A model generated the notes under the pieces. It ran no database searches. It was not told the origin of the DNA and saw only the letters and a list, made by a program, of their open reading frames with translations. From positions 992,001-1,056,000 of the forward strand of contig JAUFOR010000002.1 in assembly GCA_040285745.1 (NCBI GenBank): a DNA stretch of 64,000 nucleotides, in the 5' to 3' direction. Position 1 is the stretch's first letter, and every line of letters starts with the position of its first letter. Source of the DNA: Barthelona sp. PCE (Eukaryota). Shown one piece after another: positions 7,601 to 36,744 of this stretch. The translations under genes were made by a program, and so were the position numbers.

Positions 7601-8118
7601 CTTCATCGAGAACACAAACATTGAAGAGGACTCCGCGGACAAGAGTCAAGCGAAGATTTGTACCATCATTTAATCACCACCCGTCTTCAGAGAAGAAGAA
7701 TCCCACGTATCACAGAATGACTGAAAAGAAGGCTGTACTTGATATACAATTAAAGAAGCCTCAAACAGCAAGGCCTAGTTTTAGGACAAAGCGGCAGCGT
7801 GCTAAGGATTTGTTAGAAAAGACACATTGGAAGTTACCGAAACAGAACAAGTATGTCAGTGGCGAAATGGATATCGGTGCTTTATATCAGACTACCCCAC
7901 GTTCCATTCGTTCTCCACGGTTTAAAAGAACGAGGAAATCAACTTCGCATGGTGATCTTTCAATGTCTTCATCTCCTTACACCAAGAACGCACCTATAAA
8001 ACTCCCAACGGTTGATATGTCTATTAGTGGAGTTGGAAGGTCTGATAAGAAGACAGAGAGGACTATTCACCACAGCAAGTTGGATAACGATACCCTCACA
8101 GGTTTTGCTCCCTTGTGA
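4621..8118 (+). CDS. Large coiled-coil, Pro-rich protein with a basic tail; function unknown
   Basis: 1165-aa ORF with N-terminal coiled coils, PTPPP tracts and a K/R-rich C-terminus. Confidence 0.75.
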   Translation: MSEIFLEPIPDNIKNSRWLNQKDSVGPELKDTNLSVSEKLLRQRRLEGSNSSSRATGGKIDLLSARVETSKKLIEINDRVSEAVGEFEKVFSNTLIDDDEPRGLANLLDDYERLSLDREGLIGSLSTFFKHQKRNITNYKDDPIIGENVESEDMLSAKTRVDTIFNETSAQTKSIISELRNTQDQMVGFFKSIIMELNDAGDKRKLESTEQKLHAAERRLNNLSEQLSSSIKKMQQNQARNAQLKKEVTQSEAQKEKLVEEHEEYVAIMKEAQEKNLQRIHALELELSNVKQVVDDKEDAINILQRDLAQLKSNSSEESDLLKQFMKNARRTAKLSFSLLKNVCDYTEFSKVIKTLEKEVDDSFSQTVTKELMPEHIGLDGTLRISSPPPRVETPPPTPPPSKEEVELKQTVELQATMWPGAMIFIRHIDRFDTEELGDISANLVELKKQKELEIANRTPTPPPKPKRQATPPSPLHEPESTSAVAEREPRIDVHTKPKTDHKTGIFDPSKPKTVTDDGMEKVAATEVLAELQNEVKHINEQVDDRIAVVEATEAGHDALSKKEIAKFNAMISDLKNKLQKKGKLPSTVEIDEEVAMMNDIDSLEILVDNFRDNLEDVIAIINEEIDNPTVTYVQPEPRDQPGTRVLLPELPGTPSNVSSPVNEQVEPPKLTTAEIIANEVGNVELKTHADIEQEELKELEERKKQFDYARERRHSNKPETAAHDYAYTDIKPVEVTKPAEQPRTTIAPTMRSNLDIMEQPEPVAKPATAAPTQSTNTSRKPDVTPSKPFNDRTPVRRTSEHEGRYSERYHPEERSVVERQYPEKPSTPKRDSRFFDDEEKHIETTLPDRKLHTSTGVSQPFPKPKPIARKTPRSLTQHASESIPDLHAAEQRYQQQASVFERRANIHRAELVALKRIKASTEPTVFTGSDAIGRAINRMESHHERAINKWERKKFNILKERLSYYDEVLKGMIGEQGDLKIRVRNLLPGSSITSSRTQTLKRTPRTRVKRRFVPSFNHHPSSEKKNPTYHRMTEKKAVLDIQLKKPQTARPSFRTKRQRAKDLLEKTHWKLPKQNKYVSGEMDIGALYQTTPRSIRSPRFKRTRKSTSHGDLSMSSSPYTKNAPIKLPTVDMSISGVGRSDKKTERTIHHSKLDNDTLTGFAPL

Positions 8119-11727: not shown

Positions 11728-11830
11728 ATTTAAAGAATAAGAACGAAAAGCCAAAAACAATTCGTATTCCTCTTTTTCACTCTTTTTCTGTTTTCAAAAG
11801 TCGTTGAATTTATTGCATTATTCTGTTTTT

Positions 11831-14800
11831 ATGCAGTTTTTATTTTTTTTAACAACATTTCTCATTTTTACCAACGTATTTGGGTTCACGGGGATAAAGA
11901 ATGATGTTAGACCAACAGAGGTGAACTTATTTGTTCCAACAGAGTCTAATATTCATTCTAAATACCACATTCTAAACATAGACATGTTCAAAAATTGTCA
12001 TATAGCTTGTGGTCCATACAACGGCTTATTCCGTGTCAAAACTACGTGTTCTGAGGCTGGTAACAGTCGGAAATACGACGTTATTACATATGCAACAAAC
12101 CACAAGGCACACAACTGCCCACAAGGTATCACATACCTAAAAAGAGACATTGATGATGAAAGTTTATTTGAAGTTGTTCAATTAGAGGATATAGTAGATT
12201 TTTTCGATGGAAATTACAGTATTTCATCGAGAAATAATTTTAAGACTCTTGGATACAGCAATTTAGTATCCAGTAGCAAACACTCAACGATGTGGAACGA
12301 CCCAGATAATGAGTTCATCAACTTGATCAACAGCGGTATTGTCTTCAACGGAGGGTTGGAGATACAGTTCACAAAGGAAATCGGTGTGACAAAATTCATT
12401 TTTCACACTTCCATGACCGTCACACAATTAATGACAACCCACTGGGACGTGAACAAGGAGCGTGTGATGCTTGAACAGTTTGATTTACTCATGGACAGAA
12501 CCTTTGTCATATATTTCGATGTGATCCCCGTTAACATAAATCTTAAATGCACTTTAAACTCAAAGTTCATCCCCATCACGTTTCGGTCCAATCTTAAGTA
12601 CACTGGAGATGTTTCTACAACTGTTTTAACCGAGGTTTATGCAGATTATCGTCATGGTAGCCGCTTCATATCATCTGTAAGTTCAGTATTACAGAAACAC
12701 AGTGTTGATACAAAAGCCTTGTCCACACGAGTGGAGGCGGAGTTTAACGTTACAACTGAGTATATTTTTGCAGTAGTCTTAAAGCAGCAGGAGTTGTTCT
12801 CGTTCACGACGGCCAATATACTTCACTATCACATTCTTGCCAATACGGTGCTCTGCCCCGACGACAACATACAGAACAATCTGAAGTGGCAAAGTTTTGC
12901 TACTTTTACGGTTCCGAATCAAGTTATTGTTACTTCTACGTCGAATTACCTCACGTTACCATTTGCCCCATCGAGCGCATATTTCTCATCAAAGATTGCA
13001 TATGACATGGTCTTGGGGTGTCTGAACAGCGTGGATTATCTAAGTCAGCAGCGTATCTTGGAGCATTGGGAGAAGGACAGTAACCTTGTTGCATTTGTCC
13101 CAAACGTTACTTTAAGCAGTATAGTCCAGGAAGGGTCGCTAGTGTACATCACAATGCATTGTTCCAACACGCCAAAGGTTGTCAGGACACCGTATGTGAC
13201 GGTCACTGAGCTTGGTCGTCTTGCCACCTTCGATCACCAGTTTGTGTTTCCATTCTCGGCGTCGATGGCGTGTTCCATCAGCGTGAGCGTTGATTCGTTC
13301 ACTGGCAGGCGCGACCTGACAACGTGGAACATCAGGCCTGTCTCTGAGTTCAAACTGGCCAAGAGCAATATAACCAGTTTGTGTCGTATTGGTACGAACT
13401 CAGCGTGCTTTGACTTTCTGTTGGTTCATCCGCTTGCGTCAAATAGGTGGTTTCATGTACATTTTCCATTGTTTTTTACGCTTCGTACTTCTTTGTCGCT
13501 GAGTTCAGGAGCATACATTCTCCCCAAAATCAACGTCAGGAAAGTTCGAAAGGAGGCGCAAATCGATGCCGACTACATTAACCTCATGGGACATGTGGAC
13601 CTGATACCTGGTGCAGATTGTGTATACCCGGATAGTGCTCGCTGCATTCGTATTCCATTAGACTTCTCATCCAGCAACGACATCGATCTCTCAGTCATAG
13701 ACAATTATTTCATTGCTGAAATCACAAGGATAAAGCACAGTGAGAGCCTTGATATGGGATACCAGCTGTTTGTCAAGCGGAGCACACAACGTGAGTGGAT
13801 CTCTTTAGGTAAGTATGTTAGCAATGATGTTCAAACATCATTTTTTGTTGGGTCCCCATTCCACAGTGATTCGGTAAGTATCATGGTGGAAAACGCGCTC
13901 ACGAGGAAGGAGATCTGCCGAATGGTCATCACTACAGATCAAACAAACTCAAACATCGAGGCCGCATGCCAGTCCACTACTGGATTGCGTTTTCACATTA
14001 CGCTCCAGCTGAAGAACTCTACCGAGGTTGGAACGGTCACATTCTACTCGAGTGAGGCACTGATTCAGGATACAAAGATCAGTAGATTCTGTCAGAGGTT
14101 CTGGTCGTGCAGCTGCGCCTTTTTCTTGAACAAATACTCCATAAACGATTTCACAGTCAAGTACAGTACTGATTTTGTTATTGATTCGCATCGAATTGCG
14201 CGCATGGACCTTGAGCAGGAGACTGAGACGGTTATCTACATTGGGTCACAGTTCTTCTCGTTCACCGAAAATATTCTAATTAAGGTGAATGGCGACGACA
14301 ACGCAGACGCCATACCCCTCATCACTGTGTTTTGCAATAAGAACTTTACTGGATCAAGTGACGTAGGATATGTTGAGCTTTCTACCAAAAACACAGATGT
14401 CCAGATCGTCCTATCTACATTAGAGCGTTCTTTCTTCGGATCGCTGCTCATTTACCCTATTCACAACGTCAGGCATGCCGATGTGATCCAGCCCTTTATA
14501 TATCCAATCATTTTAAGATTCCCCGTACTGCACTACTACTATATTTCCATTTCGACAACAGAGAACGCCATGGCGGAGCTGTACCGTGTCGGTTCCCTCC
14601 GTGACTCGTTCGTTCCGTTTGATGCGTTCGTTGTGAACAACCCCGTTCATTTCCAGCTGGACAACGACAACCAGATTTTCTTGCAACTCAGCACAAACTA
14701 CCCGTCTCTGTTCCTGACGCTCCGCTACGGGCAGACAATGAAGCCGGGTAGGCTTTATAGGGCTCAAGAGCACTGGAACTCAACATACTTTATCCTGGAG

Positions 14801-15739
14801 CATAGCGCCAACAAGAACAACAAGTTCTTTGCGAGCTGGGACCTTGCTGTTTCCACTGCATACTACATATGTAACGATACACGCAGCGTTTTAGTAACTG
14901 GAATTTCAACGCTGCCAGCGTGTGAAAATGATGTTATACTATATATGCCAGAGGTGATTAGAGGAAATATAGTTTTTGGTCACTTTGTTGAGCCTCTTGT
15001 CAACTCCACGGGCCTGTATATGGCTGGAGGACTACTGCTTGTTAATGACAAGGATATCAGTTCCAGCGACATCTTTACAATTTCGAGCAGATATGTTCCA
15101 GAGGTGATTCACACGAACGGGCACACGTCACAGTGCGTGCGTCTTTCTGAGGCGGAGGACGGGATGGTGACCTCAAAATGCGTTCTGTTCCAAAGGAGTC
15201 AAGCTGTGATCATACAAACAACGTCTACTGGTCTTGTTTTCTTAGAGAAATCTGAATTCAAGTCACTCTCCAATTATATCCCTGCATATTACACGCAGAC
15301 GGAGTCATGGAATCAGGGGACCAAGTTTGCAGTCAAGCTACCACCGAACTACGTCATGCATCCAGACTTTCTCTCCTCTTTCTTCTATGTCAATATCACG
15401 TGTGATTCGAGCCTAGCGTTTGGGTCTCTCGCAGAAAGCGGAATAGACACGGTTTACATATTCCTTGTCAGTGGTTCAGTCAGCAAGAACGAACGTTGTT
15501 TCTTTACTTTGCCTTACTCCAGCACAACTTTCCCTAACGCAGAGGTCACAGTGGAGTTTGTCCACATTAACCAAAAGCAATGGATCGACTGGGTTTATAC
15601 AAGCATCCTAGTTGTTGCTGTTTTCTTCGGTGCACTCTTAATTACACTGCAAATTACTCAAAAGGAAGACAGAGATGATATTGGCGATCCCTATTTGTAT
15701 CAGCTATTCATCCACCAAGTTCAGACAGACCTACTTTAA
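11831..15739 (+). CDS. Large type-I membrane/surface protein, unknown function
   Basis: Signal-like 'MQFLFFLTTFLIFTNVFG', long beta-rich ectodomain with N-glycosylation sequons, single TM near the C-terminus, short tail. Confidence 0.75.
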   Translation: MQFLFFLTTFLIFTNVFGFTGIKNDVRPTEVNLFVPTESNIHSKYHILNIDMFKNCHIACGPYNGLFRVKTTCSEAGNSRKYDVITYATNHKAHNCPQGITYLKRDIDDESLFEVVQLEDIVDFFDGNYSISSRNNFKTLGYSNLVSSSKHSTMWNDPDNEFINLINSGIVFNGGLEIQFTKEIGVTKFIFHTSMTVTQLMTTHWDVNKERVMLEQFDLLMDRTFVIYFDVIPVNINLKCTLNSKFIPITFRSNLKYTGDVSTTVLTEVYADYRHGSRFISSVSSVLQKHSVDTKALSTRVEAEFNVTTEYIFAVVLKQQELFSFTTANILHYHILANTVLCPDDNIQNNLKWQSFATFTVPNQVIVTSTSNYLTLPFAPSSAYFSSKIAYDMVLGCLNSVDYLSQQRILEHWEKDSNLVAFVPNVTLSSIVQEGSLVYITMHCSNTPKVVRTPYVTVTELGRLATFDHQFVFPFSASMACSISVSVDSFTGRRDLTTWNIRPVSEFKLAKSNITSLCRIGTNSACFDFLLVHPLASNRWFHVHFPLFFTLRTSLSLSSGAYILPKINVRKVRKEAQIDADYINLMGHVDLIPGADCVYPDSARCIRIPLDFSSSNDIDLSVIDNYFIAEITRIKHSESLDMGYQLFVKRSTQREWISLGKYVSNDVQTSFFVGSPFHSDSVSIMVENALTRKEICRMVITTDQTNSNIEAACQSTTGLRFHITLQLKNSTEVGTVTFYSSEALIQDTKISRFCQRFWSCSCAFFLNKYSINDFTVKYSTDFVIDSHRIARMDLEQETETVIYIGSQFFSFTENILIKVNGDDNADAIPLITVFCNKNFTGSSDVGYVELSTKNTDVQIVLSTLERSFFGSLLIYPIHNVRHADVIQPFIYPIILRFPVLHYYYISISTTENAMAELYRVGSLRDSFVPFDAFVVNNPVHFQLDNDNQIFLQLSTNYPSLFLTLRYGQTMKPGRLYRAQEHWNSTYFILEHSANKNNKFFASWDLAVSTAYYICNDTRSVLVTGISTLPACENDVILYMPEVIRGNIVFGHFVEPLVNSTGLYMAGGLLLVNDKDISSSDIFTISSRYVPEVIHTNGHTSQCVRLSEAEDGMVTSKCVLFQRSQAVIIQTTSTGLVFLEKSEFKSLSNYIPAYYTQTESWNQGTKFAVKLPPNYVMHPDFLSSFFYVNITCDSSLAFGSLAESGIDTVYIFLVSGSVSKNERCFFTLPYSSTTFPNAEVTVEFVHINQKQWIDWVYTSILVVAVFFGALLITLQITQKEDRDDIGDPYLYQLFIHQVQTDLL

Positions 15740-17876: not shown

Positions 17877-18461
17877 ATGAGCGAAATTTCTATTTACAGA
17901 GCTCTTTTCAGTAACTACGAGAATGCACCAGTCACTAAAGCATTTTTTAGTACTTTAAACAACATGGACAGCTACATTACACCTTCTGTTCCTGAATTCA
18001 GCTTTTCAACTCCACAAGAGAGCGATTTAAAAACTGAGAATAATCATTTAAAGAAAGAAAACGAAAAATTAGAACAAGAAATCAGATTCATAAAAACGTT
18101 TCTCCATCACCAACTTAATATTCCTGAAGGAACATCCCAGGAAATGATGCGACATCTAAAGAATCAGCAGACCCATCATACACCCGTTGGGCATACCCAC
18201 GCTAAACGAAAACTGCGCCGAGTGAAAAAGATTATTGAACAGAAAGAACGAGCCAATCTATGCCCAATCTGTCTCTCCCATGCCAAAAACGCAATGTTGT
18301 TACCTAGCAGACAAACTGTATGTAACAGCTGCGCAACTGAACTCGTAAATAAGGGTATGAGAGATCCATTCACCAGATCACGAATCGAAAATGTTGTCTA
18401 TGATGCATTAAAGTTTCAAGAAAGCCCTGTTAGAACCAATTTGTTCAGTACACCAAGATAA
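17877..18461 (+). CDS. Coiled-coil protein with degenerate RING/U-box domain
   Basis: 'CPIC...LLPSRQTVCNSC...RDPFTRSRI'; AT-rich like the adjacent island. Confidence 0.7.
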   Translation: MSEISIYRALFSNYENAPVTKAFFSTLNNMDSYITPSVPEFSFSTPQESDLKTENNHLKKENEKLEQEIRFIKTFLHHQLNIPEGTSQEMMRHLKNQQTHHTPVGHTHAKRKLRRVKKIIEQKERANLCPICLSHAKNAMLLPSRQTVCNSCATELVNKGMRDPFTRSRIENVVYDALKFQESPVRTNLFSTPR

Positions 18462-18528
18462 TCAAAATAAAACTTATTCAACAAAGCTGAATAACAAAGA
18501 AGCAGAAAAAAAATCTTGAAGCATTACA

Positions 18529-18546
18529 TAAGGATGCACAAATGCT
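18529..18546 (+). repeat. Left TIR
   Basis: TAAGGATGCACAAATGCT, preceded by CATTACA at 18522-18528. Confidence 0.92.
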
Positions 18547-18738
18547 CTCTTTCTTAAAATGACAACACATGCTGAATATGCTAGTCACCAAAATGTACGG
18601 GTAGGTTTGATATTTATTAAGTCTGCTGCTAAAGCGTGTAAAATTGTTTCTTTCGTTTTTTAGGCAAAGATTTTCCAAATTCTCACGTTTCATATACCAG
18701 CTTTTCTTTATATGCACATTAAATCTCAGTAGATCAAC

Positions 18739-21700
18739 ATGTCAACGAAAATTCAGTTCATTGAACATGTTAATGATGATTTAAAAAAAATCTTGAAGCA
18801 CAAGAAAAAGTACGATAAAGTTACTCATGAAGAAGCTTTGTTAAAGAAAATTATGAATGATATCTGTGACGAAATTGAAAAAAGGAACCCAGTTGATGAA
18901 TTGCAAAAAAGTGCTTTAGAATTTTTCAAAAACCATATTGCAACCATGGAACCTGGCAATCGTGATGGTTTTTTACCAAGATCAGCAGTTACTCCATTTG
19001 GAAAGAATACCACCAAGCAAAGTCAAATTGGTTTGATTTATGTGGATTCCCGTGATTTCCATATAATAGCTGATGATCTCAACTTTTTTGTAACCCAGTT
19101 AGAAGGGCAGAGAAATGACATATTTGAGGGAAAGACGATTGTTAAGAACCTAAACTCAACCAAGATGGCACATTTACGTGATAGGTGTTATTCATGTAGA
19201 AATTACATCAATACAAAACTTATTAACAGATGGGATACGTTTAAAAAAAGTGTAATGAAGGTTTAGTGGATGAAAAGGACTTCATTTTTTGGATGAAAAG
19301 AATCAGAAATTCTATTAGTTCTAACATGGAATCAACCCATCTCTTCCAGCTTGATGGAAATTATGTGTTATGTAGTGAAAAATGGGAAGAAAAAATGTAT
19401 AAACTATCATTTAGAAAGATATTTGTCCCTGAGAAGTCCATTCCACCAGCTGGATGGCCCCGTACCTCACAATGGAGTCTGATAAACTTGAATATAAAGG
19501 ATAATAATCCGGAAAACAGAACATTACTTAATATAGAGCTTAAGAAACTCTTTATAGTAGGTTTTTGGATTATCATACAAGGTTCTTACGAAGCAATATT
19601 ACCAATCCAAATATCTAAGTATTTAGCAGAGTTAAATATGCATACTTATGTTGAAGCTGAATGTTACAATCAGTCTATTGATGCAATTTCTGATCTTTTA
19701 TGTTTTTCAAAGGCTGTTAAAAGGAAATATCAAATCACATCCCCTAAAAGATCATCCAAAAACATGAAATTGTTGCATTGTGCAGAGCAAGCTCGATATG
19801 TTTATTGCAAACAATTATGCAAGTCTATCGTTGAAGCAGGTCTTCCAGTGCATTTGATGTTGGATAAGTGGACACCTAACACTGTCAAAGATTCAATTAT
19901 GGCGATCATGATTAAGATACCAACTGAAACAAGAAGTTTCAATATTGATCACCCAATATTTTCGAATGCATTATTTATTTCCCATGATGACGTTACACCA
20001 ATTCATTATGGATATATTTTGCCCACTATTCGTAACAAATTTATTCTTTTAGACGTCCATTTTGATATGAAAGGTAAACATAATTACATTTTCAACGCAA
20101 TTATTTCCACTGTTTTCCGCTTTGGATTACATAAGGCTAAGCAGCTTTATTTCATTTCTGATCGTGGATTGCCTGAGTTAAAGGCGTTGAATTTTGTTGA
20201 AGAATATTTTAATGGAATTGGATCTGCAAAAGTTTTAATGGATATAATGATTGATAGCATCGTGAAACGTTATTCAAGTAACACTGATGCTGATCGCTTT
20301 AGTTCGCAGTTCAATGAGCATGATTATTTGGACATTGTATCGAGTACAGAGATTGTTTCAGAAAAAAAATTAAGGGAAATACTTTTGGAACACTACTTGC
20401 ACAATTACAAAGTTCCAGTTTTACCTTTTAATTGTATGTTCCATATGGTAAACAACTTTATCCGCTGCTTTGTACCTGTTATTACAATTGAAACAAGAGG
20501 GAATTACATGAGAGTGGAACCTGGAACTTTTCAAAAACAGTTTACAAAGCTTGTTAATTACTTTTCCATTCAGAAATGTGACATTATTTATAACACTGAA
20601 AGGAACAAATCACTTATACGTCTTATTGATTGTTTTTTGGGTGAATACTTTAACGTTTTAAAAACCCGCTCTGAGCAAGAAGCTGAAGAAAAAGGAATAC
20701 CAATGAAGGAAAAGCCCTACAGAAACATGAGCGCTACTCAAAAAAAAAAGGAAAAGAAAAGATGGAGCAATTCTCTAGAAGATAGAAAGCCTTATAAGTG
20801 GTATAATCGGGTTACCCAGAATAATTTCGATGATTTCTTTGAGGAAACATTGAATTTCAACATTGGATATTATGAAGAATCTGTTTTCGACGAAGCAATT
20901 AGGAGGGTACTTAAAAAAGATGAAAAGAAAGGATGGTACAAGGATTATGCATCGCATACGATTGTTCCAATTTATTTAGAGGATTTATTCGAGCATATTA
21001 GACAGCTTTTCATTGCAAACAAAGAACAGGTTGCCATTTTAAGAAGAGTGCTGCCTGTCTGGTCAAATTTATATGGAAAAACACGAGTCATTTTCCAGTT
21101 GTTTTTTGAGACTCTTTTTGAAGATTCTAGTAAGTTTAATGACAATTTTGCAAAGGCCTTTGCCATTACTGATATCTTTAAGCAGATTGAGAGCATTATT
21201 AACGATCCTGATGGAGATCCGCTTAATACGATTTACTGTTCCTTTACTGAAGATGAGCTGAGATGGGTTCTATTCTTCTGCTTCGTTGTAAGAAGGTTTA
21301 AGAAACTGTCTCTGCTAATTGAACAAGATAGTTTTACACTACAACAAGCAATTATTCAATTTCGTTCAATAATTAGAGATATTCAGGAATACGACATCTC
21401 AATGCCTAATTCTATTCCTATTATCGATAAGGAAGTGCCTGATATCATAGAAGAATCGCCATACTCAGATGGCTTACCCTCTTCTTTACTTACAATTATG
21501 TTTGATAATGTTAATGATACTAATACAATGCATAAAGATAAAGCTACAAGAATTAAGGCGAATCTGAAGCCAAGTTGCGTCAACGACTTGCATATTCATT
21601 CTGCAGTACGCTGTTGCATGCGTGGTTTTGAGGAAATGAAAGTGCAGGATGGTGAAAAAAATGTAATTGGCACTGTCAAATGTGATTCAGGAGCGAGTCT

Positions 21701-22220
21701 CGGCCTTCTTGAAGACGTCAAAACCCTTGTTATCACTGCGTTTGCGATGTATTTTGATAGATGTGCTAATAACAAATTTTTTTTCAAACAGTATATCGGA
21801 AGTGCACCCTTTTGGTTTGCAAAAGTTAGTAATAACGCGTTCATTGATTATTTATGCGAAGACCAACCAGAATTCCTTAATACACCCGCTACAACGTGTC
21901 CAGTTGAGCGCGTTTTTTCTCACTATGCATTTTTGGAGAGTCAAATGGGCAAGGCTACTTTACACGCTACTTTACGATTGAAAATGAGGCTCCACCGGTC
22001 ACTACATCATTGGGTGTGTATGGATTCAGCCCGAATATCCGACTATTCTGAACATGTTGACGAATTTAGGTTCAGGGAGTTGGAAGAGCTTGCCAGGAAG
22101 CGAACATCAAGTAATTTGTTTGATAATATAAAATCTGAATTCGATGATGATATACAACATTCTTTACTGCTTGAAAGTGATGATGAAAATGAAAGTGATG
22201 ATGAAAGTGGGTTGGAATAA
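18739..22220 (+). CDS. hAT-like transposase 1, split into two frames (18739-19266 and 19245-22220)
   Basis: D1 'HLMLDKWT', D2 'FISDRG', CxxH 'CMFH', 'PVWSN', C-terminal hAT dimerisation motif 'PATTCPVERVFS'; acidic tail. Confidence 0.8.
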
Positions 22221-22756
22221 TTTGATGGGGTATCATAGCTTTTTCACTTTCATGTTTGGAGGATCCAATTTTACTATTACTTGAACAATTGAATAGTATT
22301 TTATCTTCATGTGTTTTGACAATAATTGCACACCATATTCGATTCGAGTATATGTTGAAAATCCGTTTGACCTGTATCATTACCATTTGCAATGATAAAA
22401 CTCGCTGTAAACTCATTTGAATTTTTTCCTCCCTTTTACGTTTTTGCCATTCAACATTTACCATTGTAGGTTGGAGGATTTTGCACCGGGGCTATGTTTG
22501 TTGAGATGACGCATTGATTTTAGCATTCCGCATCATTTTTTCATAAAAATTTTTGTTTAAGAATTTACACAGTCTACGAAGTATGATCTATGATGGCAAG
22601 TTGATCTCATGTTGCCGAACTACACTTTTTTGTTCTTACAGTGTAAGCACAAAGAAAAAAAGTTGGAAATGTTTTCACCACAAGTAAAGAGAGTTTGTTA
22701 ATATAAACACCATATTCAATCTAACAGCAGTTTTTAGCTACTGTACAGAAACTACC

Positions 22757-22774
22757 AGCATTTGTGCATCCTTA
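22757..22774 (-). repeat. Right TIR
   Basis: AGCATTTGTGCATCCTTA, followed by CATTACA at 22775-22781. Confidence 0.92.
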
Positions 22775-24124
22775 CATTACAACTTTTTTATTGTTTGCAC
22801 TTTAAAGCTTTGACTTCGAGATATTGTATCGATTCTTCATCAGAAATCCTAAAATTAGCTGATTTAACGTATATAAAGAAGCAATATGTATATCGAGCAT
22901 TTTTTATGGATGTAAGTGAATGAATAATTTTTAATTACACCATAATAATGCATATTATACTAATAATATTCCATAAAATGAGAAGAAAAAAAATCTGAGT
23001 ACCATTACTACATTTAGTTTATTGTAATATAAACCATTTAAATACTTCTCAATTGATTTTGCTTACCTCCTTAATGTTTTTTGATTGCCTAATAAAAATT
23101 TTCTCAACGTTTACTTTATGTACAGATTTTTAAAAGATACAATCATTCATTGTACAAATAATTGTCTGTCAAATATACTTTTTATTAATGAATATAGGCA
23201 ATATATTAAAAGTGCAATTGAAAGAAATTTTCAGGAATGTTTTATCGATAATCCATTCACTATTCTCTCAATATAATCTGCCCACTATATCAAATCAATG
23301 TGTATGGATCAGGAAAAATGTTCCACCCTGTTTAATAAAAAAAGTTGATCAAACCCGGTATTAGACAATACATGACCAGAACATGGATTAAACACGAATC
23401 GAATATCTGTGAACGAGAGTACTGCAACTGTTAACAGATTGTACTTTGTGTAATTGTTTATGATATTAACCTTCTTTTGCCTGCACAAATCGCAACCTTC
23501 ATTAATACAGTTGATTGCAAGCAATGGTCATAAACACAAGCAGAAAAAAGCAAATAGTTGCTTTAGTGATATTGAAATATAGATTCACAGGCATTCATCT
23601 TTCTTGTTTTTAAGCGTATAGAACATGATATATAGACATTATACAGTACGATAAACTGCATGGAATGGATAAAACTGCATCAAAAAGATAACTTTTTTTT
23701 TTTCTCCTAATCGTTTTATATTACAGTATTTTTATGTGATTTCAGTGCATCTTTGATGGTTTTTAGGCCATATCTCGACTTTTGTTAAGGTTGAAGTTTG
23801 TAGTTATAGAATTTCAAGATTTATTTCTTGTTAAAGGTGAATCGGATAATGAAAATTCGCTGAACTTCCAAAATTTATTTAAAATTTATATCAGAGATGT
23901 AGGTTTGATTCCTACTTCGCCTATAAAATTTTTATTTTTTTTTCCACTCAGTAGCAAAGTTTTTTTAGACAAAGAATACTTGAAACTGTATCTCAACGCT
24001 TCTAAATTGAACTCTAAAGTGATAAAAAATGAAGATCTGATGTTGTTTTTTTTGCAACTTTTTGTTGAATGATGGAAGCATGTGGTTGACGGAACTCATG
24101 GCAGAGTGAATCTGTGACTCATGA

Positions 24125-27100
24125 ATGTGCTGTCCGAATTACGTCCTTTATCGTACATTCCGGATTTCTCTTTTTTACTATTTTTATGGGGTGGGATCTC
24201 AATTACCCGACCTCGATCTTAGGAACCATGATCAACCACCCCATAAAGTGGGTAGTGTAAAAACTGTAACAAACAAAGTAACGATTTGGAGTTCAGAAGT
24301 CAAAAATTCAATGTTATTACTATTCCATGAATTTAATGCTTCTAAGTACGCGTTATTAAATCACAAAGAGCTTTTGGATACTTATAACAAGATATCCAAC
24401 AAAGAAAATATCAAGATCCATCTGGTTCAGGATTCAATATTTCCACTTCTTTTCAAGCAATTATCACGGCAAAATCAGCAAATCACTCTGATGAAGGTAT
24501 CACCAGCTAAAGTTAATGCTGGTAGGGGCTTTGCTTTGCCATTTGTATTTTTAGCTATGGATAAAAGTTTGAAGAACATTAGATCTGAATACGGTCCAGG
24601 TTCTGAGATGGCTTTCAGGGATTACACAACATATTACGGTGAGGTTGTGCACCCTTACATTCTGGAAACCATTTTTAACTCTGCTTATGTTCAAGCAGCA
24701 AACAATTCAGAAAACGTAACTCTTTTTATGGAATTTGATCTGTCAAGCGATGTACGCAAAGATGATGCACTTATTATGTTGAAGGTACCAACCGATCTGG
24801 AACTTGTTTGGGTCGAGCATCCATTTTTGGAGAGCTCTACGAAAATGTACACAAAAAAGCATTTAATAATCACACTAGAGCAATATTTGGATTCTTTAAA
24901 AGGTAAGTTTATCATCTTTGATATATTTTCAACCGAGTTCACTGTTTCCCACGCAACTGAAGTTGTTATTAATCCTCTTGATTACCCAGATTTCACTGTG
25001 CGTAATTTTGTAGTACCTGAAATCAGCAAGGCGGAATACAAACGTGCTCAGGATCTGTGCGAACAGTTTTTGTCTCGGCTTAAAAAATACAAAATCATCC
25101 AGTCATATTCAATCATCGAGAGGAAAAACAGGGATCGCTGGTGCTTAGAAGATGTTATTATTGACATGGGTGATTCTGAAGTTAAGATTGTTGTTGGAAC
25201 TGATAATGGCACGCCAGAACAGCTCGCCTTTCAAAAGATATGTGATGCATGCTCGTCAATATCACGAGTTCCATGTGTTTGTCATGTTTTAAATAAGATT
25301 ATGGCAAAAACCAGTGGGTTTGAGTTCTTTCCTAGTCATATTCAGCATCAATCCTACAGTCCTCCTTATTTTGATAGTTTTAATTCGTTGAGAGTCTCCA
25401 ATGAAACCGTCACTATGGATATCATCGATCAAGTTTCACAAAATCCATTTGTTGAAGCGTTGTTTAAGAAGCTAGATTTATCAAATTTATTCACCAACCG
25501 TACCATTTCACGTTCTGCTGCTGCTCGACTTAACAGCGTTGTTTCTCTCCATGAAACTCATCCAATCTTTGCACTTTCTGAACCTGCAGCAGAGAATGAG
25601 AGTGTTACAGATGATATTTCTGGTGCAACTATCAACAATTTAACAGAAGAATGGATCGAGTCATTTGTTCATTCTGACAGTGATGTGGTTGAAGGTGGTT
25701 TGATTTCTGACGATAAGCTCATGTTTACCTTTGCATATACATCATTTCACGAATGTCAACACCTTGAAAACTTGTTAAGTCAGCGCAATGCTTGCCTGTT
25801 AGGCGTTGATTTGACCTTAAGTAACTCTCTTTCAAATGATGCCTATCGTTTCAATGTACTTGAGCATTATACTGAATTCATTGATCATCTTGCCATGATT
25901 TCTTTAGAGAAATATGCAAAAATGTTGGATGATCAGCAGAAATCTCTCGCCAATTTTTCAAAGATACAGACGCTGTTAACAGTTGATACTATGCGTGTGT
26001 TTTATAAATACCATACAGTCTGGTGTGAAGTAACGGGAAGATCCATATCTCTTTCGAATGTTCGTTGGGATACACTGGAATGGATTTATGATGTATTGTG
26101 TGGTGGACTGTACATGGACATCCCCAAGATACTATTTTTACCTGAGGGAACAGAAACAATTCCTGATGATTTTGCAATAACATGGTCTCATTTTGATATC
26201 ACTGATATGATTCTTCGTCTGAAGTACCACGAAGGTAAGGATTTGGAGATTAAGCGGATGTTAAAGAGCAATAATACTGTTTGTGACGAGGATCATTATC
26301 GGCATTTTCTTTCTCCTTTTTATGAGGCCATGAAGGATGGGAATAAGCAGCCTCATGGATTTTCTCTGGGCCCTGATATGTGGGTATTGGCAAGGAATTA
26401 TTTTTCTACTTATTCTCGTATGATCTTCATTCAACGTATGAGCAGTAAGAATGATTTTTCAGTTTTACAATCATATTTCCAAGTTTCCATTCTTTTGCAT
26501 GAATTGCGAAAGTGGCGCTCAGATTTAAGAATAGAAAATGCAACAAGCCTTGCTACAATATACCATGATGGTCTTTTTGAGTATGTTCGTCATTATTTTT
26601 GCAAATTCCTCATCATGCCCGAACCTTTAGTGGCTTTTCTTCTCTCAGATTTAAGCACTGTTGAGCTCCAGGATCATAATAAGGAGGTTAAAGATATCAC
26701 AAATGATAAACCCAGAAAGAGTTGTTTGAAGGAAGAATTATACCAACTGTATGTTGATGCAAAGATACCCAATATTAACAGAGGAGGTTTAGTTAAGGTT
26801 ACAGACAGGGAACTTGTAAGACTAAAAGGTATGATGGTTTTTTCATTTTTGCCCACCAAGTTCAAGCGCTGTGGAAGTGAATGTCCCGCATTACATCTTA
26901 TTAGTGATCACGTTTATGTTAATATGGCAAAAGATTTTAATGATCCTTTGTTGTATAGAGGGTTAGTGGGGTATATAATTTCGATTCTTTGTACCAATTA
27001 CTATTTAGACTTTTCACCATCCAATGAAGATCGAAAGAAGGTCGTAATGCGCTATACACCAGAAGTGGAACCCCAAACAATTGTATTACCATTATCGACA

Positions 27101-27511
27101 GGCTTTCTCAGTCCTAGTCGCCGTTCTTCCAATCGTATGGAGAGTGAACTATCTCCAAGTGCCCAAAGTGTGCATGAGCCCCCTTTAAGTGCTCAAAGGG
27201 TGGCCGATGAGTTCGATTTCAGTGATACAGGAATTAGAGAAAGAGATGTTCGTGCAGCACTTGTTCATGGCCACACCCACGAATCTGTGGAGGGTTTACC
27301 CGGTTTCCGAGCTATAATTAGACAATATAGCAGTGCATCTGCCAGCAATTCTGGAGTTGAGCATGGATTTTCTAAGGTAAAAGGACTGGATTCCAAGATT
27401 CGAGTCAGATTAACAACTCGTACACGTTTTAATTGGACTTTATTAAATGAAGCTTCTGCAGTCCCAAGGATTACGTATGATGAACTGAAAGAAATAGTGA
27501 AGACTATCTAA
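24125..27511 (+). CDS. hAT-like transposase 2; true 5' end uncertain
   Basis: D1 'FMEFDLSSD', D2 'GTDNG', CxxH 'CVCH', 'VRWDT', 'SASASNSGVEHGFS'. Confidence 0.8.
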   Translation: MCCPNYVLYRTFRISLFYYFYGVGSQLPDLDLRNHDQPPHKVGSVKTVTNKVTIWSSEVKNSMLLLFHEFNASKYALLNHKELLDTYNKISNKENIKIHLVQDSIFPLLFKQLSRQNQQITLMKVSPAKVNAGRGFALPFVFLAMDKSLKNIRSEYGPGSEMAFRDYTTYYGEVVHPYILETIFNSAYVQAANNSENVTLFMEFDLSSDVRKDDALIMLKVPTDLELVWVEHPFLESSTKMYTKKHLIITLEQYLDSLKGKFIIFDIFSTEFTVSHATEVVINPLDYPDFTVRNFVVPEISKAEYKRAQDLCEQFLSRLKKYKIIQSYSIIERKNRDRWCLEDVIIDMGDSEVKIVVGTDNGTPEQLAFQKICDACSSISRVPCVCHVLNKIMAKTSGFEFFPSHIQHQSYSPPYFDSFNSLRVSNETVTMDIIDQVSQNPFVEALFKKLDLSNLFTNRTISRSAAARLNSVVSLHETHPIFALSEPAAENESVTDDISGATINNLTEEWIESFVHSDSDVVEGGLISDDKLMFTFAYTSFHECQHLENLLSQRNACLLGVDLTLSNSLSNDAYRFNVLEHYTEFIDHLAMISLEKYAKMLDDQQKSLANFSKIQTLLTVDTMRVFYKYHTVWCEVTGRSISLSNVRWDTLEWIYDVLCGGLYMDIPKILFLPEGTETIPDDFAITWSHFDITDMILRLKYHEGKDLEIKRMLKSNNTVCDEDHYRHFLSPFYEAMKDGNKQPHGFSLGPDMWVLARNYFSTYSRMIFIQRMSSKNDFSVLQSYFQVSILLHELRKWRSDLRIENATSLATIYHDGLFEYVRHYFCKFLIMPEPLVAFLLSDLSTVELQDHNKEVKDITNDKPRKSCLKEELYQLYVDAKIPNINRGGLVKVTDRELVRLKGMMVFSFLPTKFKRCGSECPALHLISDHVYVNMAKDFNDPLLYRGLVGYIISILCTNYYLDFSPSNEDRKKVVMRYTPEVEPQTIVLPLSTGFLSPSRRSSNRMESELSPSAQSVHEPPLSAQRVADEFDFSDTGIRERDVRAALVHGHTHESVEGLPGFRAIIRQYSSASASNSGVEHGFSKVKGLDSKIRVRLTTRTRFNWTLLNEASAVPRITYDELKEIVKTI

Positions 27512-27778
27512 ATTCAATTTTTTCATTTTTATGATGGAGAAAAAGCATTTTTGTGGATTTATTGTGAGTTATTTGGTTCACAAGGTACATGAAAGCTTTC
27601 ACATGTATTTCTGAGCACTCTAATATTTTAATATGTTTGTAAATTTGTACTGAAATTCCCCCAATAAAACCGGAATTACACTTTTACAATGTTTATATCT
27701 GGGATCCGTCTCTTCATGTCGTCAACCTTTCGACCCACCGTGTTCAGTATACCTACGGTTTAGTCAAACATAAATGAT

Positions 27779-29515
27779 TTACAACTTGTTATCTGCAGTT
27801 ACAATGAAGTTCAGCGACTCAATGATAGATGAAGCATCTTGTGCAGCATCGTCACACAGAGCAATGAAGGACTGTATGACCTTCCTATGCGGTTTGCTGA
27901 TTGGCTTGCCTATGGACACAGCAATATCGGTAATAACCTTTGGGTACTGTGACAGAACTGTTGTAGCATCCAAATCTTTAATCTTACGTCGTTCAACACC
28001 AAGACCTGTTAATGCGATTTTGATTCTATGCAACGTGGGGAGCAGCTCGTCAATAGCTGTGACGAGGTCTATCAGTTCTGAGACAAGCTTGTTTTGTTTC
28101 TCTAGATTTCGTGTAACACCCAGATATGATGCGCTTTCGTGGAATAAATTCTCCAGGATCAAAATACGACGGACAGAAGCGCTGGCCTTCAGCAGCACCT
28201 TGTAGTGTGCTGGGAGTTCATCCTCAAATACATCACGGTCTTCTGCGGCCATCTTTCTCTGCTCGATCATTGGGAAAATCACAAACTTATCGTATTGCAT
28301 CATTTTTTGTTGCTCAATTACGTGCTGCTCGTCATACTTCACCATTTCGTATTGTTCTTCTCTCTCTAAGAGACGTTCTTCCTCGTTCAATTGCTCAGAA
28401 GTGATGGAGCTCACCTCCACCTCAAGCTCCCTCCACTCATCCTTCATGACGTTGGGGGTGGGCGCTCTTGTAGATTGCGACATACGGCTCTCTGCTCGCT
28501 CTGAATTAGCTTTTTTCGACTTGGCTGCGTCCTCCAACGCCTTGATTTGCTCCAGGTCACGACGCGCTTCAGCATCCAGCGCGTCTTCCGGTGGCAGTAG
28601 GAACCACAAATCGATATTTCCATTTGGTACAGTCTGCAAAGAAAACGCTATGGGCTCTGGGATACTGCTATCGTCCAACAATGGAGACATTGGATCTAAG
28701 ATGGAAAGGCACTCACCAAGGATCTTGATTAATGAGCTGAGATACCCTCCAACCTCGTTCAAACGACTAGCTTCCATCTTTCCAGCCATTACTCTGGCGA
28801 ATTTCAAAATTGCTCTAGCAAAATTCTTATTTTTCTTATTGAGCGCTGCGAGCTCGTCCAGTCGAGCATTGATGTGGTTGGGCAAGTCTAAATCATCTTT
28901 TTTAACCTCAAAATCTTCCAAATCAGATATATGTTTTCTAAATCGCATCAGTAAAGAAAAGCACAAAGCTGCTGCATACCTCTTAGGAAACGATGATACA
29001 ACTGGTTGTCCTTTATATTCTGGTATTTCTTTAACGCTTTGGGGAATTGGTGCTGATGGATTACCAAAATTATCCTTTGAAACGTCAGGACGACGTCCAC
29101 AGACCTCAATGGGCTTGAATGTATTACCATATATACCTCTCATCAAGGCATTATACCTGGTAATATGTTTAACTACGTGACCGGAATCCTTCTCTTTTTT
29201 CTTCTCGGATTTAGTCATTCGCGGAATATAGTTCTCCCCTCCGAAATCATCAGGCTTCGGGGGTGGAGGTAAGGAGAATCCAGTAGATTTCTGGCCTGAA
29301 ACAGAAAGTTTTTCTTTGGCTAAATTGTAGATTTCCTTTGATACAGGCTTTGTTCTGGGATTAACAGAGTAGGGAGAAAAGAACTTGACATGTGCGTACT
29401 CCTTCTTTTTCCTCTTGTTGGAGAAATTGGTTTTCACCAATGATTCCCTAGCTGTTTTGTATTTATCGGGCTTTTTACGCTGTATGCGACTATCTGTACG
29501 TGTGGAGCTATCCAT
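27779..29515 (-). CDS. Hypothetical coiled-coil protein with basic N-terminus
   Basis: 578-aa ORF with host-like composition. Confidence 0.7.
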   Translation of the reverse strand: MDSSTRTDSRIQRKKPDKYKTARESLVKTNFSNKRKKKEYAHVKFFSPYSVNPRTKPVSKEIYNLAKEKLSVSGQKSTGFSLPPPPKPDDFGGENYIPRMTKSEKKKEKDSGHVVKHITRYNALMRGIYGNTFKPIEVCGRRPDVSKDNFGNPSAPIPQSVKEIPEYKGQPVVSSFPKRYAAALCFSLLMRFRKHISDLEDFEVKKDDLDLPNHINARLDELAALNKKNKNFARAILKFARVMAGKMEASRLNEVGGYLSSLIKILGECLSILDPMSPLLDDSSIPEPIAFSLQTVPNGNIDLWFLLPPEDALDAEARRDLEQIKALEDAAKSKKANSERAESRMSQSTRAPTPNVMKDEWRELEVEVSSITSEQLNEEERLLEREEQYEMVKYDEQHVIEQQKMMQYDKFVIFPMIEQRKMAAEDRDVFEDELPAHYKVLLKASASVRRILILENLFHESASYLGVTRNLEKQNKLVSELIDLVTAIDELLPTLHRIKIALTGLGVERRKIKDLDATTVLSQYPKVITDIAVSIGKPISKPHRKVIQSFIALCDDAAQDASSIIESLNFIVTADNKL

Positions 29516-33548: not shown

Positions 33549-34502
33549 ATGCCAACATTGAGTGATAATGCACATTTGATTTTAAGCAAAATGTCGAGCT
33601 TTTCTCAGCAAGGTGCCAAGATTTCTTCGTTAAGAACAAAAGTGAACCTTGCACACTCGCAATTCGACGCAGCACTGTCGGAGTTGGAAGCTAATTTACA
33701 AATAGTTATCATTGCACAAACCACAGTTGCAATTTCACCATTTAGACAACGTCAGAGGGAAAACCCGTCAGAGGCAGAGATCGTTATCGTCAGGAGGCTC
33801 GCAGAGGCGGGAACAGGAGGTTATTTTTTGAAGGATTTGAGGAAAGTGTGTCAGTTGCCCACCAAAGATGCAAACGATGCTACAAAGACCCTTATCAACG
33901 AGAACATCATCAAGAAGGTACCCACTGTCAAATCAAAGAAGCTTCGACTCTACATGCTCTTCATGTTGGAACCGAGTATCGAACACACTGGAGGTGCATT
34001 TTACAACAGAGGAGAGTTTGACAGCGGATATGTGTACGCCGTGAAGGCAAAGCTCATTGAGATGATGACGAGACAGCAGTTACGTGATAAATCTAGTTGG
34101 CTTCTTACTGTACCTGCCATTCTTCAATGGTACGACTCATCACAGATCAGTTCTGTCCCCCTCAACGAAGAGAGTATGAGGGAGCTCCTGAACAGTATGG
34201 TATACGAAGGACTGCTTGTTGAGTATAACAATTGTTTTTTCCCATTATTGGATATGACGACATGTCCCAAGGGGAATCAGGAGATGTATGATGTATTCGA
34301 GCGCCGCCAGAAAACAGAGGCGGATGATATCGATGATAATGATATAGCTGGCACACATTTTCAGTCTGGACGACTGTGCTGCATGCGTTGCCCAGTCTTG
34401 CAACAGTGTGTATGTGATGTGGAGGCTGCAATAAGCCCTCACTCATGCCCTCTTTTGAAGGCACAGATTACAGACAATATATATACTAGTCAAGACAGAT
34501 AG
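33549..34502 (+). CDS. POLR3F: RNA polymerase III subunit C34/RPC6
   Basis: 'IIKKVPTVK...LYMLFMLEPSIEHTGGAFY..GEFD' and C-terminal Cys cluster 'CMRCPVLQQC...ISPHSC'. Confidence 0.85.
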   Translation: MPTLSDNAHLILSKMSSFSQQGAKISSLRTKVNLAHSQFDAALSELEANLQIVIIAQTTVAISPFRQRQRENPSEAEIVIVRRLAEAGTGGYFLKDLRKVCQLPTKDANDATKTLINENIIKKVPTVKSKKLRLYMLFMLEPSIEHTGGAFYNRGEFDSGYVYAVKAKLIEMMTRQQLRDKSSWLLTVPAILQWYDSSQISSVPLNEESMRELLNSMVYEGLLVEYNNCFFPLLDMTTCPKGNQEMYDVFERRQKTEADDIDDNDIAGTHFQSGRLCCMRCPVLQQCVCDVEAAISPHSCPLLKAQITDNIYTSQDR

Positions 34503-36744
34503 GCACTGAATCAATTCCGACACCGAGAATAAAGAGGTTTCCATCATGCACGAAGCACGCACGGGGTTTTCGGATCATCAACGATGCATATTGACGGATG
34601 GAACGATCTGCACTTATATAGTACACAAAACTGTCATCGCTAACCGCAAACACCCCTTCATCAACTGAACACACGCATCTAACACTTGCGAACCCGCACA
34701 TGACCGGATCATCGTCGAAATAAACGTTGTGACCGTCTGTTGCCTGCACCAAAACATCACCAAAAGTGCACATGTCGGTGACAGCACCATTACACTGTCG
34801 GACGAGCTCAACTTCTTCACCCACCGAGTAAACAGCACCAGAAGAGCACCCGAAATAAGCGATGTTTCCGTGAATATGTGCTGATAAGGCAACAGAAGAA
34901 AGTGTTGCAACACTACTCTGTGATGATTTTCGAAAAACGTTACCGCAACCAGTCGCGAACAATATATCGTCGTCAATAGCCACACCGCACGTGATACGGT
35001 GTTGCATTGTCCAAAAAGAAACTTTTGTTGTTGATATTGAAGCGATCCCCATATCACCCAAAACTATTACTCCTGCTTCGTTGGGTAATCCAATGACATA
35101 ATGCGGCTTGAAAGGTAGCTCGTAACTGCCTTTAATGTCTCCGTATATCAATAACCTGTTTTCTTGACGTGAAACGCCGAAATATATGTTTCCCATATTA
35201 TTCCCATGTTTAAAAACACAATGGGAGCTTACAACAATGCGTGATGCACTCATTGCCGGACTTAGGGTCTGTTTTATGAGCCTATGAGCCTTGGATTTGA
35301 AAGTTATAACAATCTCAGACTCAAAATCTTCTATAAGCAAGGGGTCCCCTATAGTTTTCAGGAATTCGTGATTAAAAATACATGCGCGACTCATGACATC
35401 AAAGACACCCTTGGTCGTGACAACAACCGGAAAGGATTCCTCAGCGACAACCATTGGACAAACACCTATCAAGCTGTCAAATCGCAACCATCCATTTTTG
35501 AAAAAAAGATCTTTTCCGCCACAAAATAGAGCAATTCCACACACCTCAACAACTTTTCTGGGTTTGAAATTGTCAACGCAGAGATTTATAGACCATTCAT
35601 CTGACTTTAAAAGAAAACCTCTACCGTTGGGTACTATCCCTGCCGTTTTGCTGTACCTGTTCTTCTTCGAAAATACAGAATCGCTTGCTATCAAGTGTTG
35701 TTCACGAATCCCAGTGTGTACGTCAAGTGTGATAACACTTTTATCAAAGAGGTCTCTCCCAATGACTTTTGACCCAGAAAGCGAAAGAAACGCCATCCTG
35801 CCACAGCTCAAGTCAGATATTTTTTCTCCGTCCCAGACGCTAATGTGCTCATTTTTAACGTTCGTTACTCCAAAAATTTCACCATTACTGTATGAAAACT
35901 TTACGAAACCTGAAGGGGCATCGATAGGATTGTGGGAACACTTGCCAGTTCCAATACTTAGCATATAAGCTCCACCATCTTTTAGACCAACCAAACACCT
36001 GTCACCAACAGTCTTTGCGCATGTTACGTTAACCTTACTGAGTTCAATCTGCCCCAATAGTTCCGCTGTGCAGCCGTTGATCTTCCACGCAGATACACAT
36101 CCCTGCATATCACCAATTATGGCGTATTGTCCAACAAGTGCAGCATGCGTTAACTTCATGTTATGACCATGAAACTCAGAGTTTTCTCCTGTTTCAAGGT
36201 CTACAACACACACAGTTCTACTTTCCCCACAAAGGACACATAAATTTTCAGAAATCGCAATGTCAAAGACAAACCCAGTTATGCAAACATTAATTTGTCG
36301 TTCAAAGCCACCAACGACCGACCGAATGGACAGAAATCCACCTAGGACGCATACTGAGCACAGGGACCCATCAATATAACCGAGCTTATGCTTGAAGGAT
36401 ATTTGATTGTGTAGTTCAAGCATTCTTTCAATAGTTTCAGCAACGGTATCAACTTTAATAACTACACCGTTAAGGTAGGCAATGTAAATTTCAGTCCCTA
36501 CAGTCACAGTATCTGAAATTAATGAAAAAGTGAACGGAAGTGTGATTGAAAGGCCAGAGTCCAGCATATGAACACGTTTAGGCGTTATTACAGCCATCAG
36601 ATCGCATGAAATACCAAAAATAACTTCCCTAAATGGAAGAACCCACAAGTTAGAATCAGAAATGCGAAGCACTCTATTTGAAGAGCTTATAAAAACATCA
36701 TGCAGATTATCAAACGCATCTGCAGCCCTTATTGCCCCTTGCAT
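34486..36744 (-). CDS. Divergent WD40/beta-propeller protein, possibly WDR6/Trm734-like
   Basis: 'LCGESRTVCVVD...FHGHN', 'SDDSFVY' and repeated short beta-strand pattern. Confidence 0.6.
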   Translation of the reverse strand: MQGAIRAADAFDNLHDVFISSSNRVLRISDSNLWVLPFREVIFGISCDLMAVITPKRVHMLDSGLSITLPFTFSLISDTVTVGTEIYIAYLNGVVIKVDTVAETIERMLELHNQISFKHKLGYIDGSLCSVCVLGGFLSIRSVVGGFERQINVCITGFVFDIAISENLCVLCGESRTVCVVDLETGENSEFHGHNMKLTHAALVGQYAIIGDMQGCVSAWKINGCTAELLGQIELSKVNVTCAKTVGDRCLVGLKDGGAYMLSIGTGKCSHNPIDAPSGFVKFSYSNGEIFGVTNVKNEHISVWDGEKISDLSCGRMAFLSLSGSKVIGRDLFDKSVITLDVHTGIREQHLIASDSVFSKKNRYSKTAGIVPNGRGFLLKSDEWSINLCVDNFKPRKVVEVCGIALFCGGKDLFFKNGWLRFDSLIGVCPMVVAEESFPVVVTTKGVFDVMSRACIFNHEFLKTIGDPLLIEDFESEIVITFKSKAHRLIKQTLSPAMSASRIVVSSHCVFKHGNNMGNIYFGVSRQENRLLIYGDIKGSYELPFKPHYVIGLPNEAGVIVLGDMGIASISTTKVSFWTMQHRITCGVAIDDDILFATGCGNVFRKSSQSSVATLSSVALSAHIHGNIAYFGCSSGAVYSVGEEVELVRQCNGAVTDMCTFGDVLVQATDGHNVYFDDDPVMCGFASVRCVCSVDEGVFAVSDDSFVYYISADRSIRQYASLMIRKPRACFVHDGNLFILGVGIDSVPICLD

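Follow-up and report, generated by a model that had tools for sequence, protein, structure and literature searches.

Canonical transposases of the hAT superfamily of cut-and-paste transposons are proteins of about 600–800 amino acids (aa), in which an N-terminal BED-type zinc finger is common, though not universal. The residues regarded as essential or conserved are D180, D248, R318, W319 and E572 in Hermes, and D301, D367, C401, H404, R463, [W/F]464, E719, [F/W]722 and S723 in Ac, as quoted in PMC6027215. In hAT elements the terminal inverted repeats (TIRs) carry the terminal motif YARNG (PMC3014272; PMC6027215), and their target-site duplications are typically 8 bp long (PMC3014272), within a quoted range of 4–8 bp (PMC6027215). 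The D-D-C/DxxH-E signature is, according to PMC3706591, common to hAT, Kolobok, P, MuDR and Dada, and is thus not diagnostic of hAT. Here we report on two neighboring genes, A and B, in a 64,000-nucleotide stretch of the genome of the anaerobic flagellate Barthelona sp. PCE (assembly GCA_040285745.1, contig JAUFOR010000002.1, positions 992,001 to 1,056,000; hereafter the window, in whose own numbering all coordinates are given). We consider it quite likely that they encode the transposases of hAT-like DDE cut-and-paste transposons belonging to two distantly related families (A and B), which comprise at least five subfamilies. Their placement in the hAT superfamily is made with moderate confidence, as is the view that they represent a very divergent, oversized and previously undescribed form of hAT-like transposon, so far found only in Barthelona sp. 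PCE.

Element A, which contains one transposase gene (gene A) between its two TIRs, is structurally complete apart from a frameshift in its open reading frame (ORF). The TIRs are perfectly complementary (Table 1), and their TAAGG terminus is consistent with the YARNG motif and fits the (T/C)A(A/G)NG consensus of Ac and plant hAT elements. They are the only two matches to this sequence in the window with up to three mismatches allowed (0.04 expected), and two matches were reached in 0 of 100 shuffles. The element is directly flanked by a target-site duplication of exactly 7 bp, CATTACA, as observed in this single copy. An 8-bp duplication was considered and rejected, as the flanking 8 nt differ (GCATTACA vs CATTACAA). 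A search of element A for repeated subterminal motifs gave no 8-mer occurring three or more times, and the 6–7-mers were mostly A/T-rich. Both genes, moreover, belong to repeat families: five subfamilies, all from Barthelona sp. PCE, take in at least 21 named gene models and the window's own two (P0001 and P0024). An initial reading, made from the DNA letters and translated ORFs alone (the sequence-only reading), had taken both genes for transposases; the TIRs and duplication of element A and the multi-copy nature of the families bear this out. These features, and the truncation of the second gene copy (copy B, see below), go beyond what that reading contained.

The same reading had described two proteins of more than 1100 aa that keep the order D-D-CxxH-W-E. 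Both statements hold: the product of gene A is ~1160 aa long once its two frames are joined (18739–22220, with a 1-nt loss bridged), the gene B ORF encodes 1128 aa, and the order is kept in both translations. The proteins are ~1.5–2 times the length quoted for canonical hAT transposases, and the four motif pairs noted earlier (IMIKIPTE/IMLKVPTD, DHPIF/EHPFL, KFILLDV/KFIIFDI and DRGLPELKAL/DNGTPEQLAF) are found in them as given. The spacings had also been stated exactly: D1–D2 is 99 aa in gene A and 155 in gene B (68 in Hermes, 66 in Ac), while D2–C is 91 and 24, respectively (34 in Ac), the distance in gene A being unusually long. Further on, C–W amounts to 209 and 264 (63 in Ac), D2–W to 300 and 288 (71 in Hermes), and W–E to 282 and 431 (253 in Hermes, 255 in Ac); all Hermes and Ac spacings were worked out from the residue numbers in PMC6027215. 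D1 itself lies at about residue 376 in intact members of family A and at about 324–328 in subfamily B1, as compared with 180 in Hermes and 301 in Ac. Judged by these distances, the extra length appears to be spread over several insertions, the largest of them between CxxH and W in both families. The sites of added sequence are the N-terminal region, D1–D2, D2–CxxH (family A), CxxH–W (both families) and W–E (family B), and Pfam scans of the proteins and of pieces of them recognized no known domain within the insertions.

The residue set quoted for hAT is complete in family B, and in family A it lacks only the R directly before W. In two MAFFT alignments, one with 10 and one with 12 sequences, the C and H of CxxH do not vary; the W hardly varies in the larger one, and the triplet VRW is present in all full-length family-B proteins that keep this region. 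The last E stands in an E-x-x-F-S context in gene A (VERVFS; E881, F884, S885) as well as in gene B (VEHGFS; E1079, F1082, S1083), and in the other subfamilies as VERGFS, VEREFS, IELGFS or VESAFS. The window proteins thus match Ac and plant hAT transposases in D, D, CxxH, (R)W and E-x-x-F-S.

Additional evidence comes from profile and structure comparisons. Of the ten clusters listed by an Atlas feature search with P0024, eight contain Pfam families linked to hAT (Dimer_Tnp_hAT, DUF659, hAT-like_RNase-H and ZBED1_RNase-like), with scores of 0.87–0.89. One of the Atlas clusters near gene A is mostly parabasalid, with Dimer_Tnp_hAT in 15% of its members. DUF659, which co-occurs with Dimer_Tnp_hAT in the Atlas clusters of P0024, is also the only recurring weak Pfam match. 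It was obtained with 5 of the 13 family-B proteins that have the D2–CxxH region (E 0.0047–0.11) and with none of family A, always at profile positions 81–146, which cover D2–CxxH. The AlphaFold model of copy B, based on an 11-sequence alignment, has a mean predicted local distance difference test (pLDDT) value of 42.5, rising to 67–84 over residues 57–170. Within that part a long helix precedes the strands, and D1 closes strand 1; further on, D2 comes directly after strand 4 and before the helix that bears CxxH. An RNase H-like succession of this kind is what one expects of DDE enzymes. In a structure comparison with this (poor) model, Hermes was the sole transposase among the best 50 of 48,161 chains (PDB 8edg and 6dwz; 14% sequence identity over the aligned residues). 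Of the RNase H-like DDE core to which the sequence-only reading had looked, the order of strands is visible in the model of copy B. Although both proteins have D, D and E in order, the fold can be assessed in the B model only, since the gene A model has a pLDDT of 30.4.

A number of observations weigh against a hAT assignment. The duplication of element A is 7 bp long rather than the typical 8 bp (n=1), and family A has V-W with the R three to four residues upstream, leaving only the W of the R-W pair matched. The Atlas scores, being below 0.9, count as "a lead only", the top row carries the unrelated DUF7963, and a search with P0018 among named clusters gave no usable match. The DUF659 matches reach 12.7–17 bits, against a cut-off of 34.7. 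None of the scanned proteins or pieces matched the Pfam models Dimer_Tnp_hAT, hAT-like_RNase-H or ZBED1 at E up to 10, and no scanned protein matched zf-BED at E up to 1–10. Searches of PDB by sequence and profile (with P0003, P0002, the family-B alignment and a C-terminal alignment) returned neither Hermes nor any other relevant match at E up to 10. The Foldseek match to which the sequence-only reading had looked did not materialize: with the copy B model, nothing in PDB scored at E <= 0.001. The AlphaFold model of gene A was unusable, and a structure search with it returned only short helical matches or hairpins (residues 660–716). Finally, local alignments of the flanks of copy B score 21–23, equal to a direct-repeat control, and reveal neither a TIR nor a duplication. 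The longest exact inverted match between 22700–24300 and 27400–27900 is 12 nt and lies outside plausible ends; that no TIR was found is as expected given the lost 5' end of this copy. The failure of Pfam models should be read against the divergence of the proteome as a whole. For several large neighboring ORFs (4621–8118, 8907–10649, 11804–15739, 27779–29515 and 34486–36744; 578–1311 aa), too, Pfam gives no match at E <= 1e-5, so that the argument from missing Pfam hits weighs less. Overall, of the earlier claim of a hAT lineage, the hAT-type residue set stands, whereas a Pfam hAT model at threshold and a usable model of gene A were not obtained.

To the points against a single hAT-like group belongs also the likeness of families A and B to each other, which appears marginal by sequence statistics alone (E 0.002–0.01). 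The best BLASTP segment between them, IMIKIPTE...KFILLDV, covers 51 aa at 25% identity (E 0.01). Profile comparison by hhalign gave E 0.0019 over 54 columns (probability 14%) in one run and E 0.007 in a second, collinear over 765 columns (probability 5.5%). The MAFFT alignments (10 and 12 sequences) place D1, CxxH and W, and also the I and P of the strand that comes next after D1, in columns common to both families. Common ancestry of the two families is probable. A separate observation concerns P0020 (subfamily B3, 1202 aa), whose residues 1–46 share 57% identity with the N-terminal part of family A in BLASTP (E 2e-10) and match window positions 18853–18987, gene A residues 39–83, at 59% by tblastn. 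This N-terminus could be a common N-terminal module, the mark of a chimeric element, or a gene model joining two nested elements.

The alternative that fares best, although we regard it as clearly unlikely, is that A and B are cut-and-paste transposons of some other C/DxxH superfamily (P, MuDR/MULE, Kolobok or Dada) or of an unnamed sister superfamily. The size of the proteins, far above that of canonical hAT transposases, and the failure of all Pfam hAT models would fit such a placement. On the other hand, the duplicated CATTACA is not TTAA, the duplication of Kolobok. A DxxH or CxxH after the second D is common to hAT, Kolobok, P, MuDR and Dada, and Dada, a DDE transposase group with a C/DxxH-type motif, makes target-site duplications of 6–7 bp (PMC3706591). 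The 7 bp of element A are compatible with this, as they are with the 4–10 bp range of the C/DxxH superfamilies. Compared by description only, Dada has DxxH and targets small-RNA genes, whereas in the families described here the motif is CxxH and the insertion lies between genes. The surroundings of the E and the structural match (the latter from a poor model) point to hAT instead, as do three features quoted for hAT, namely the RW motif, the YARNG terminus and the E-R-x-F-S context, and the predominance of hAT-linked rows in the Atlas search. The best 50 chains of the structure comparison included no P-element, RAG/Transib or Mu-type transposase beside Hermes, which is weak evidence in the same direction.

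Within the hAT-like reading, the families also differ from the described systems. Hermes gives no match at the sequence level, and the proteins of families A and B (1160–1250 aa) have no detected BED finger. From Ac and plant hAT elements they are set apart by the unmatched Pfam hAT dimerization model and by a 7-bp instead of the typical 8-bp duplication. For another metamonad, Trichomonas vaginalis, the elements hAT.1, hAT.2 and hAT.3N1 have been annotated (PMC7845603). No similarity to them was detected, in that all matches at E <= 0.001 are from Barthelona sp. PCE; no direct sequence comparison was made.

The five subfamilies are A (P0008, P0025 and the window copy), B1 (P0004, P0005, P0006, P0011), B2 (P0007, P0010, P0013, P0018, P0019), B3 (P0009, P0012, P0016, P0017, P0020) and B4 (P0014, P0015, P0021, P0022, P0023). 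The gene A products in the window, P0001 (175 aa) and P0024 (964 aa), share one 90% cluster with P0008 and P0025. Copies within subfamilies are 89–97% identical, and full-length forms measure 986–1247 aa. Many gene models are fragments, and the shorter relatives (131–792 aa) derive from the long forms by fragmentation or internal deletion. For example, P0011 (269 aa, B1, located outside the window) joins the N-terminal ~136 to the C-terminal ~133 residues of the transposase, a pattern that, to judge from its sequence, would be expected of an internally deleted, possibly non-autonomous element. No close full-length homolog of normal size that might account for the insertions was present in the searched collections (about 15 billion proteins). 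An exhaustive HMMER pass over 1.84 billion representatives with P0003 returned eight proteins at E <= 0.001, all from Barthelona sp. PCE. Word-indexed searches with family A found only its own cluster; these did not include an exhaustive pass, so that distant relatives elsewhere are possible. A homolog search with the D1–CxxH region of P0025 (E up to 10) found P0008 only. In the literature searched on hAT elements in protists and on Barthelona sp. PCE, the supplements of the genome paper lying outside the search, we found no description of these families, and in the passages of the genome paper that deal with repeats these appear only as a percentage and as a masking step ahead of gene prediction (PMC11316075).

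The distribution of copies bears on a second alternative, namely that A and B are host genes domesticated from hAT transposases (ZBED-like), which have expanded as a family and are no longer mobile. In its favor, copy B has kept 1031 codons without a stop at ~6–8% protein divergence from its paralogs and has no detected TIR, and several copies are annotated as ordinary genes. We nevertheless find domestication highly unlikely, given that element A has perfect TIRs and a duplication, that many copies are truncated, frameshifted or internally deleted, that copies lie on at least six different contigs, that the families are absent from any other organism in the searched collections and that the composition is AT-rich relative to the flanks.

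In gene A, two overlapping frames (by 22 nt) would have to be rejoined by a -1 shift at a run of seven A. The first frame is 91% identical to residues 1–188 of P0025, counting its out-of-frame tail, and the second is 95.7% identical to P0025 residues 170–1171. At the junction, frame 1 of the window copy translates as FKKSVMKV* and its frame 3 as KKCNEGLVDEK. The intact paralogs P0008 (1163 aa) and P0025 (1171 aa) cross it in a single frame (FKKKCNEGLVDEK, FKKKCNEGL, within NRWDTFKKKCNEGLVDEKDF), and from their continuity the window gene is short of one A from an implied run of eight. The break reflects either a genuine mutation that inactivates the gene or a mistake in the assembly, and unless it is the latter, element A in the window would need transposase supplied in trans. 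A-runs are known slippage sites, and the two frames do overlap on one, yet a programmed -1 ribosomal frameshift or transcriptional slippage at this place is even more improbable than domestication: P0008 and P0025 encode the same junction in one frame, the zero-frame TTT AAA AAA AGT does not form a canonical X XXY YYZ heptamer, and in a Nanopore assembly corrected with Illumina reads (PMC11316075), a homopolymer error inside a repeat is plausible. On the opposite strand, an ATG-initiated ORF of 130 aa (22072–22464) overlaps both gene A, at its 3' end, and element A, in its 3' subterminal part.

The gene B ORF is only partly homologous to its family. Its main block is 93.7% identical to P0004 and 91.8% to P0005 (compared over 24416–27508), and a short remnant of a more N-terminal region precedes it (Table 1). 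Residues 1–58 and 92–220 of the paralogs have no counterpart. The ORF opens with ~57 codons of non-homologous, fortuitous read-through. Paralogs that include the N-terminal region are 1227–1247 aa long. On this comparison, copy B can be described as a 5'-truncated or rearranged copy of the 1227–1247-aa family whose frame of 1031 codons is still open; most likely it is an immobile remnant. The spacer of ~1.5 kb that separates element A from the homologous part of copy B contains no ORF longer than ~100 codons and resembles no member of the families, which is unusual here, as intergenic gaps in the window measure tens of bases. This spacer may represent a decayed 5' portion of element B, or else an unrecognized third element; tblastn at E up to 10 yielded only chance-level matches to the families in 22221–24295.

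The mechanism can be proposed by analogy with hAT transposases such as Hermes and Ac. Intact copies would make a transposase that binds the TIRs and oligomerizes through its C-terminal region. Its RNase H-like active site (D, D and E with Mg2+), aided by CxxH and (R)W, would cut the element out, probably via hairpins on the flanking DNA. The 3'-OH ends of the element would then be joined to target DNA with a 7-nt stagger, giving rise to the duplication. Recent activity is suggested by the intact copies of 1163–1247 aa and by the copy with perfect TIRs and a duplication. A more far-reaching version of the hAT-like reading, possible although we consider it rather doubtful, is that the five subfamilies form an undescribed deep lineage at the edge of hAT or sister to it, recently active, with a core expanded by several hundred residues, 7-bp duplications and added segments that are new functional modules. 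If so, these segments would serve, for instance, in the recognition of ends or targets, in line with the targeting role suggested by the sequence-only reading.

Standard domain models do not pick these families up, and with them the range of sequences known for hAT-like transposases becomes wider. They are also examples, supplied by nature, of how much sequence can stand between the catalytic residues of a hAT core. They would also allow 20-odd "hypothetical proteins" of Barthelona sp. PCE to be re-annotated as transposase genes and fragments. PMC11316075 describes the genome of this organism (10.2 Mb in 8 contigs, 40.3% guanine plus cytosine (GC), 4.46% repetitive) as smaller than any other known from a free-living eukaryote. 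That a genome of this size and repeat content still holds several diversified, apparently recently mobile lineages of DNA transposons is relevant to the question of how mobile elements coexist with genome reduction.

Table 1. Coordinates of the two elements and of their catalytic residues in the window.
Feature	Position	Strand	Remarks
Target-site duplication, left, element A	18522..18528	+	CATTACA; abuts the TIR; identical to 22775–22781
Element A	18529..22774	+	4246 bp
TIR, left, element A	18529..18546	+	TAAGGATGCACAAATGCT; begins TAAGG; 18 nt
Gene A, first frame	18739..19266	+	175 aa, frame 1; N-terminal 168–170 residues homologous, then out-of-frame tail
A7 run, frame break of gene A	19243..19249	+	-1 shift needed to rejoin
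Gene A, second frame	19245..22220	+	991 codons stop to stop; ORF 19266–22220, 984 aa
Gene A residues (P0002 numbering)	19863, 20160, 20433/20442, 21060, 21906		D200, D299, C390/H393, W599, E881 (codons)
TIR, right, element A	22757..22774	-	complement of 18529–18546; 100% complementary over 18 nt
Target-site duplication, right, element A	22775..22781	+	CATTACA
Spacer, element A to homologous part of copy B	22782..24295		AT-rich, ~30% GC; no long ORFs
Gene B ORF	24125..27511	+	1128 aa
Copy B remnant	24296..24394	+	paralog residues 59–91, 55% identity
Copy B main block	24416..27511	+	1031 homologous codons and stop; matches P0004/P0005 from residue 221 to the end
Gene B residues (P0003 numbering)	24737, 25202, 25274/25283, 26063–26068, 27359		D205, D360, C384/H387, R647-W648, E1079 (codons)

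A single intergenic gap of a very compact genome holds elements A and B, arranged head to tail. Just outside this two-element block (18442–18471 and 27741–27774) there is a weak direct repeat, TGTTCAGTAYACC...ATAAA; its local score of 23 is no better than that of chance-level inverted matches in the same test. A tRNA scan of the window returned 0 genes. The region from 18 to 28 kb has a GC content of 30–38%, as compared with 41–44% in the flanking 2-kb bins. The window is otherwise gene-dense, with long intron-free ORFs and gaps of tens of bases, and the neighboring products include proteins with an adaptin N-terminal domain, a SPRY domain and a flagellar NYD-SP28 domain.

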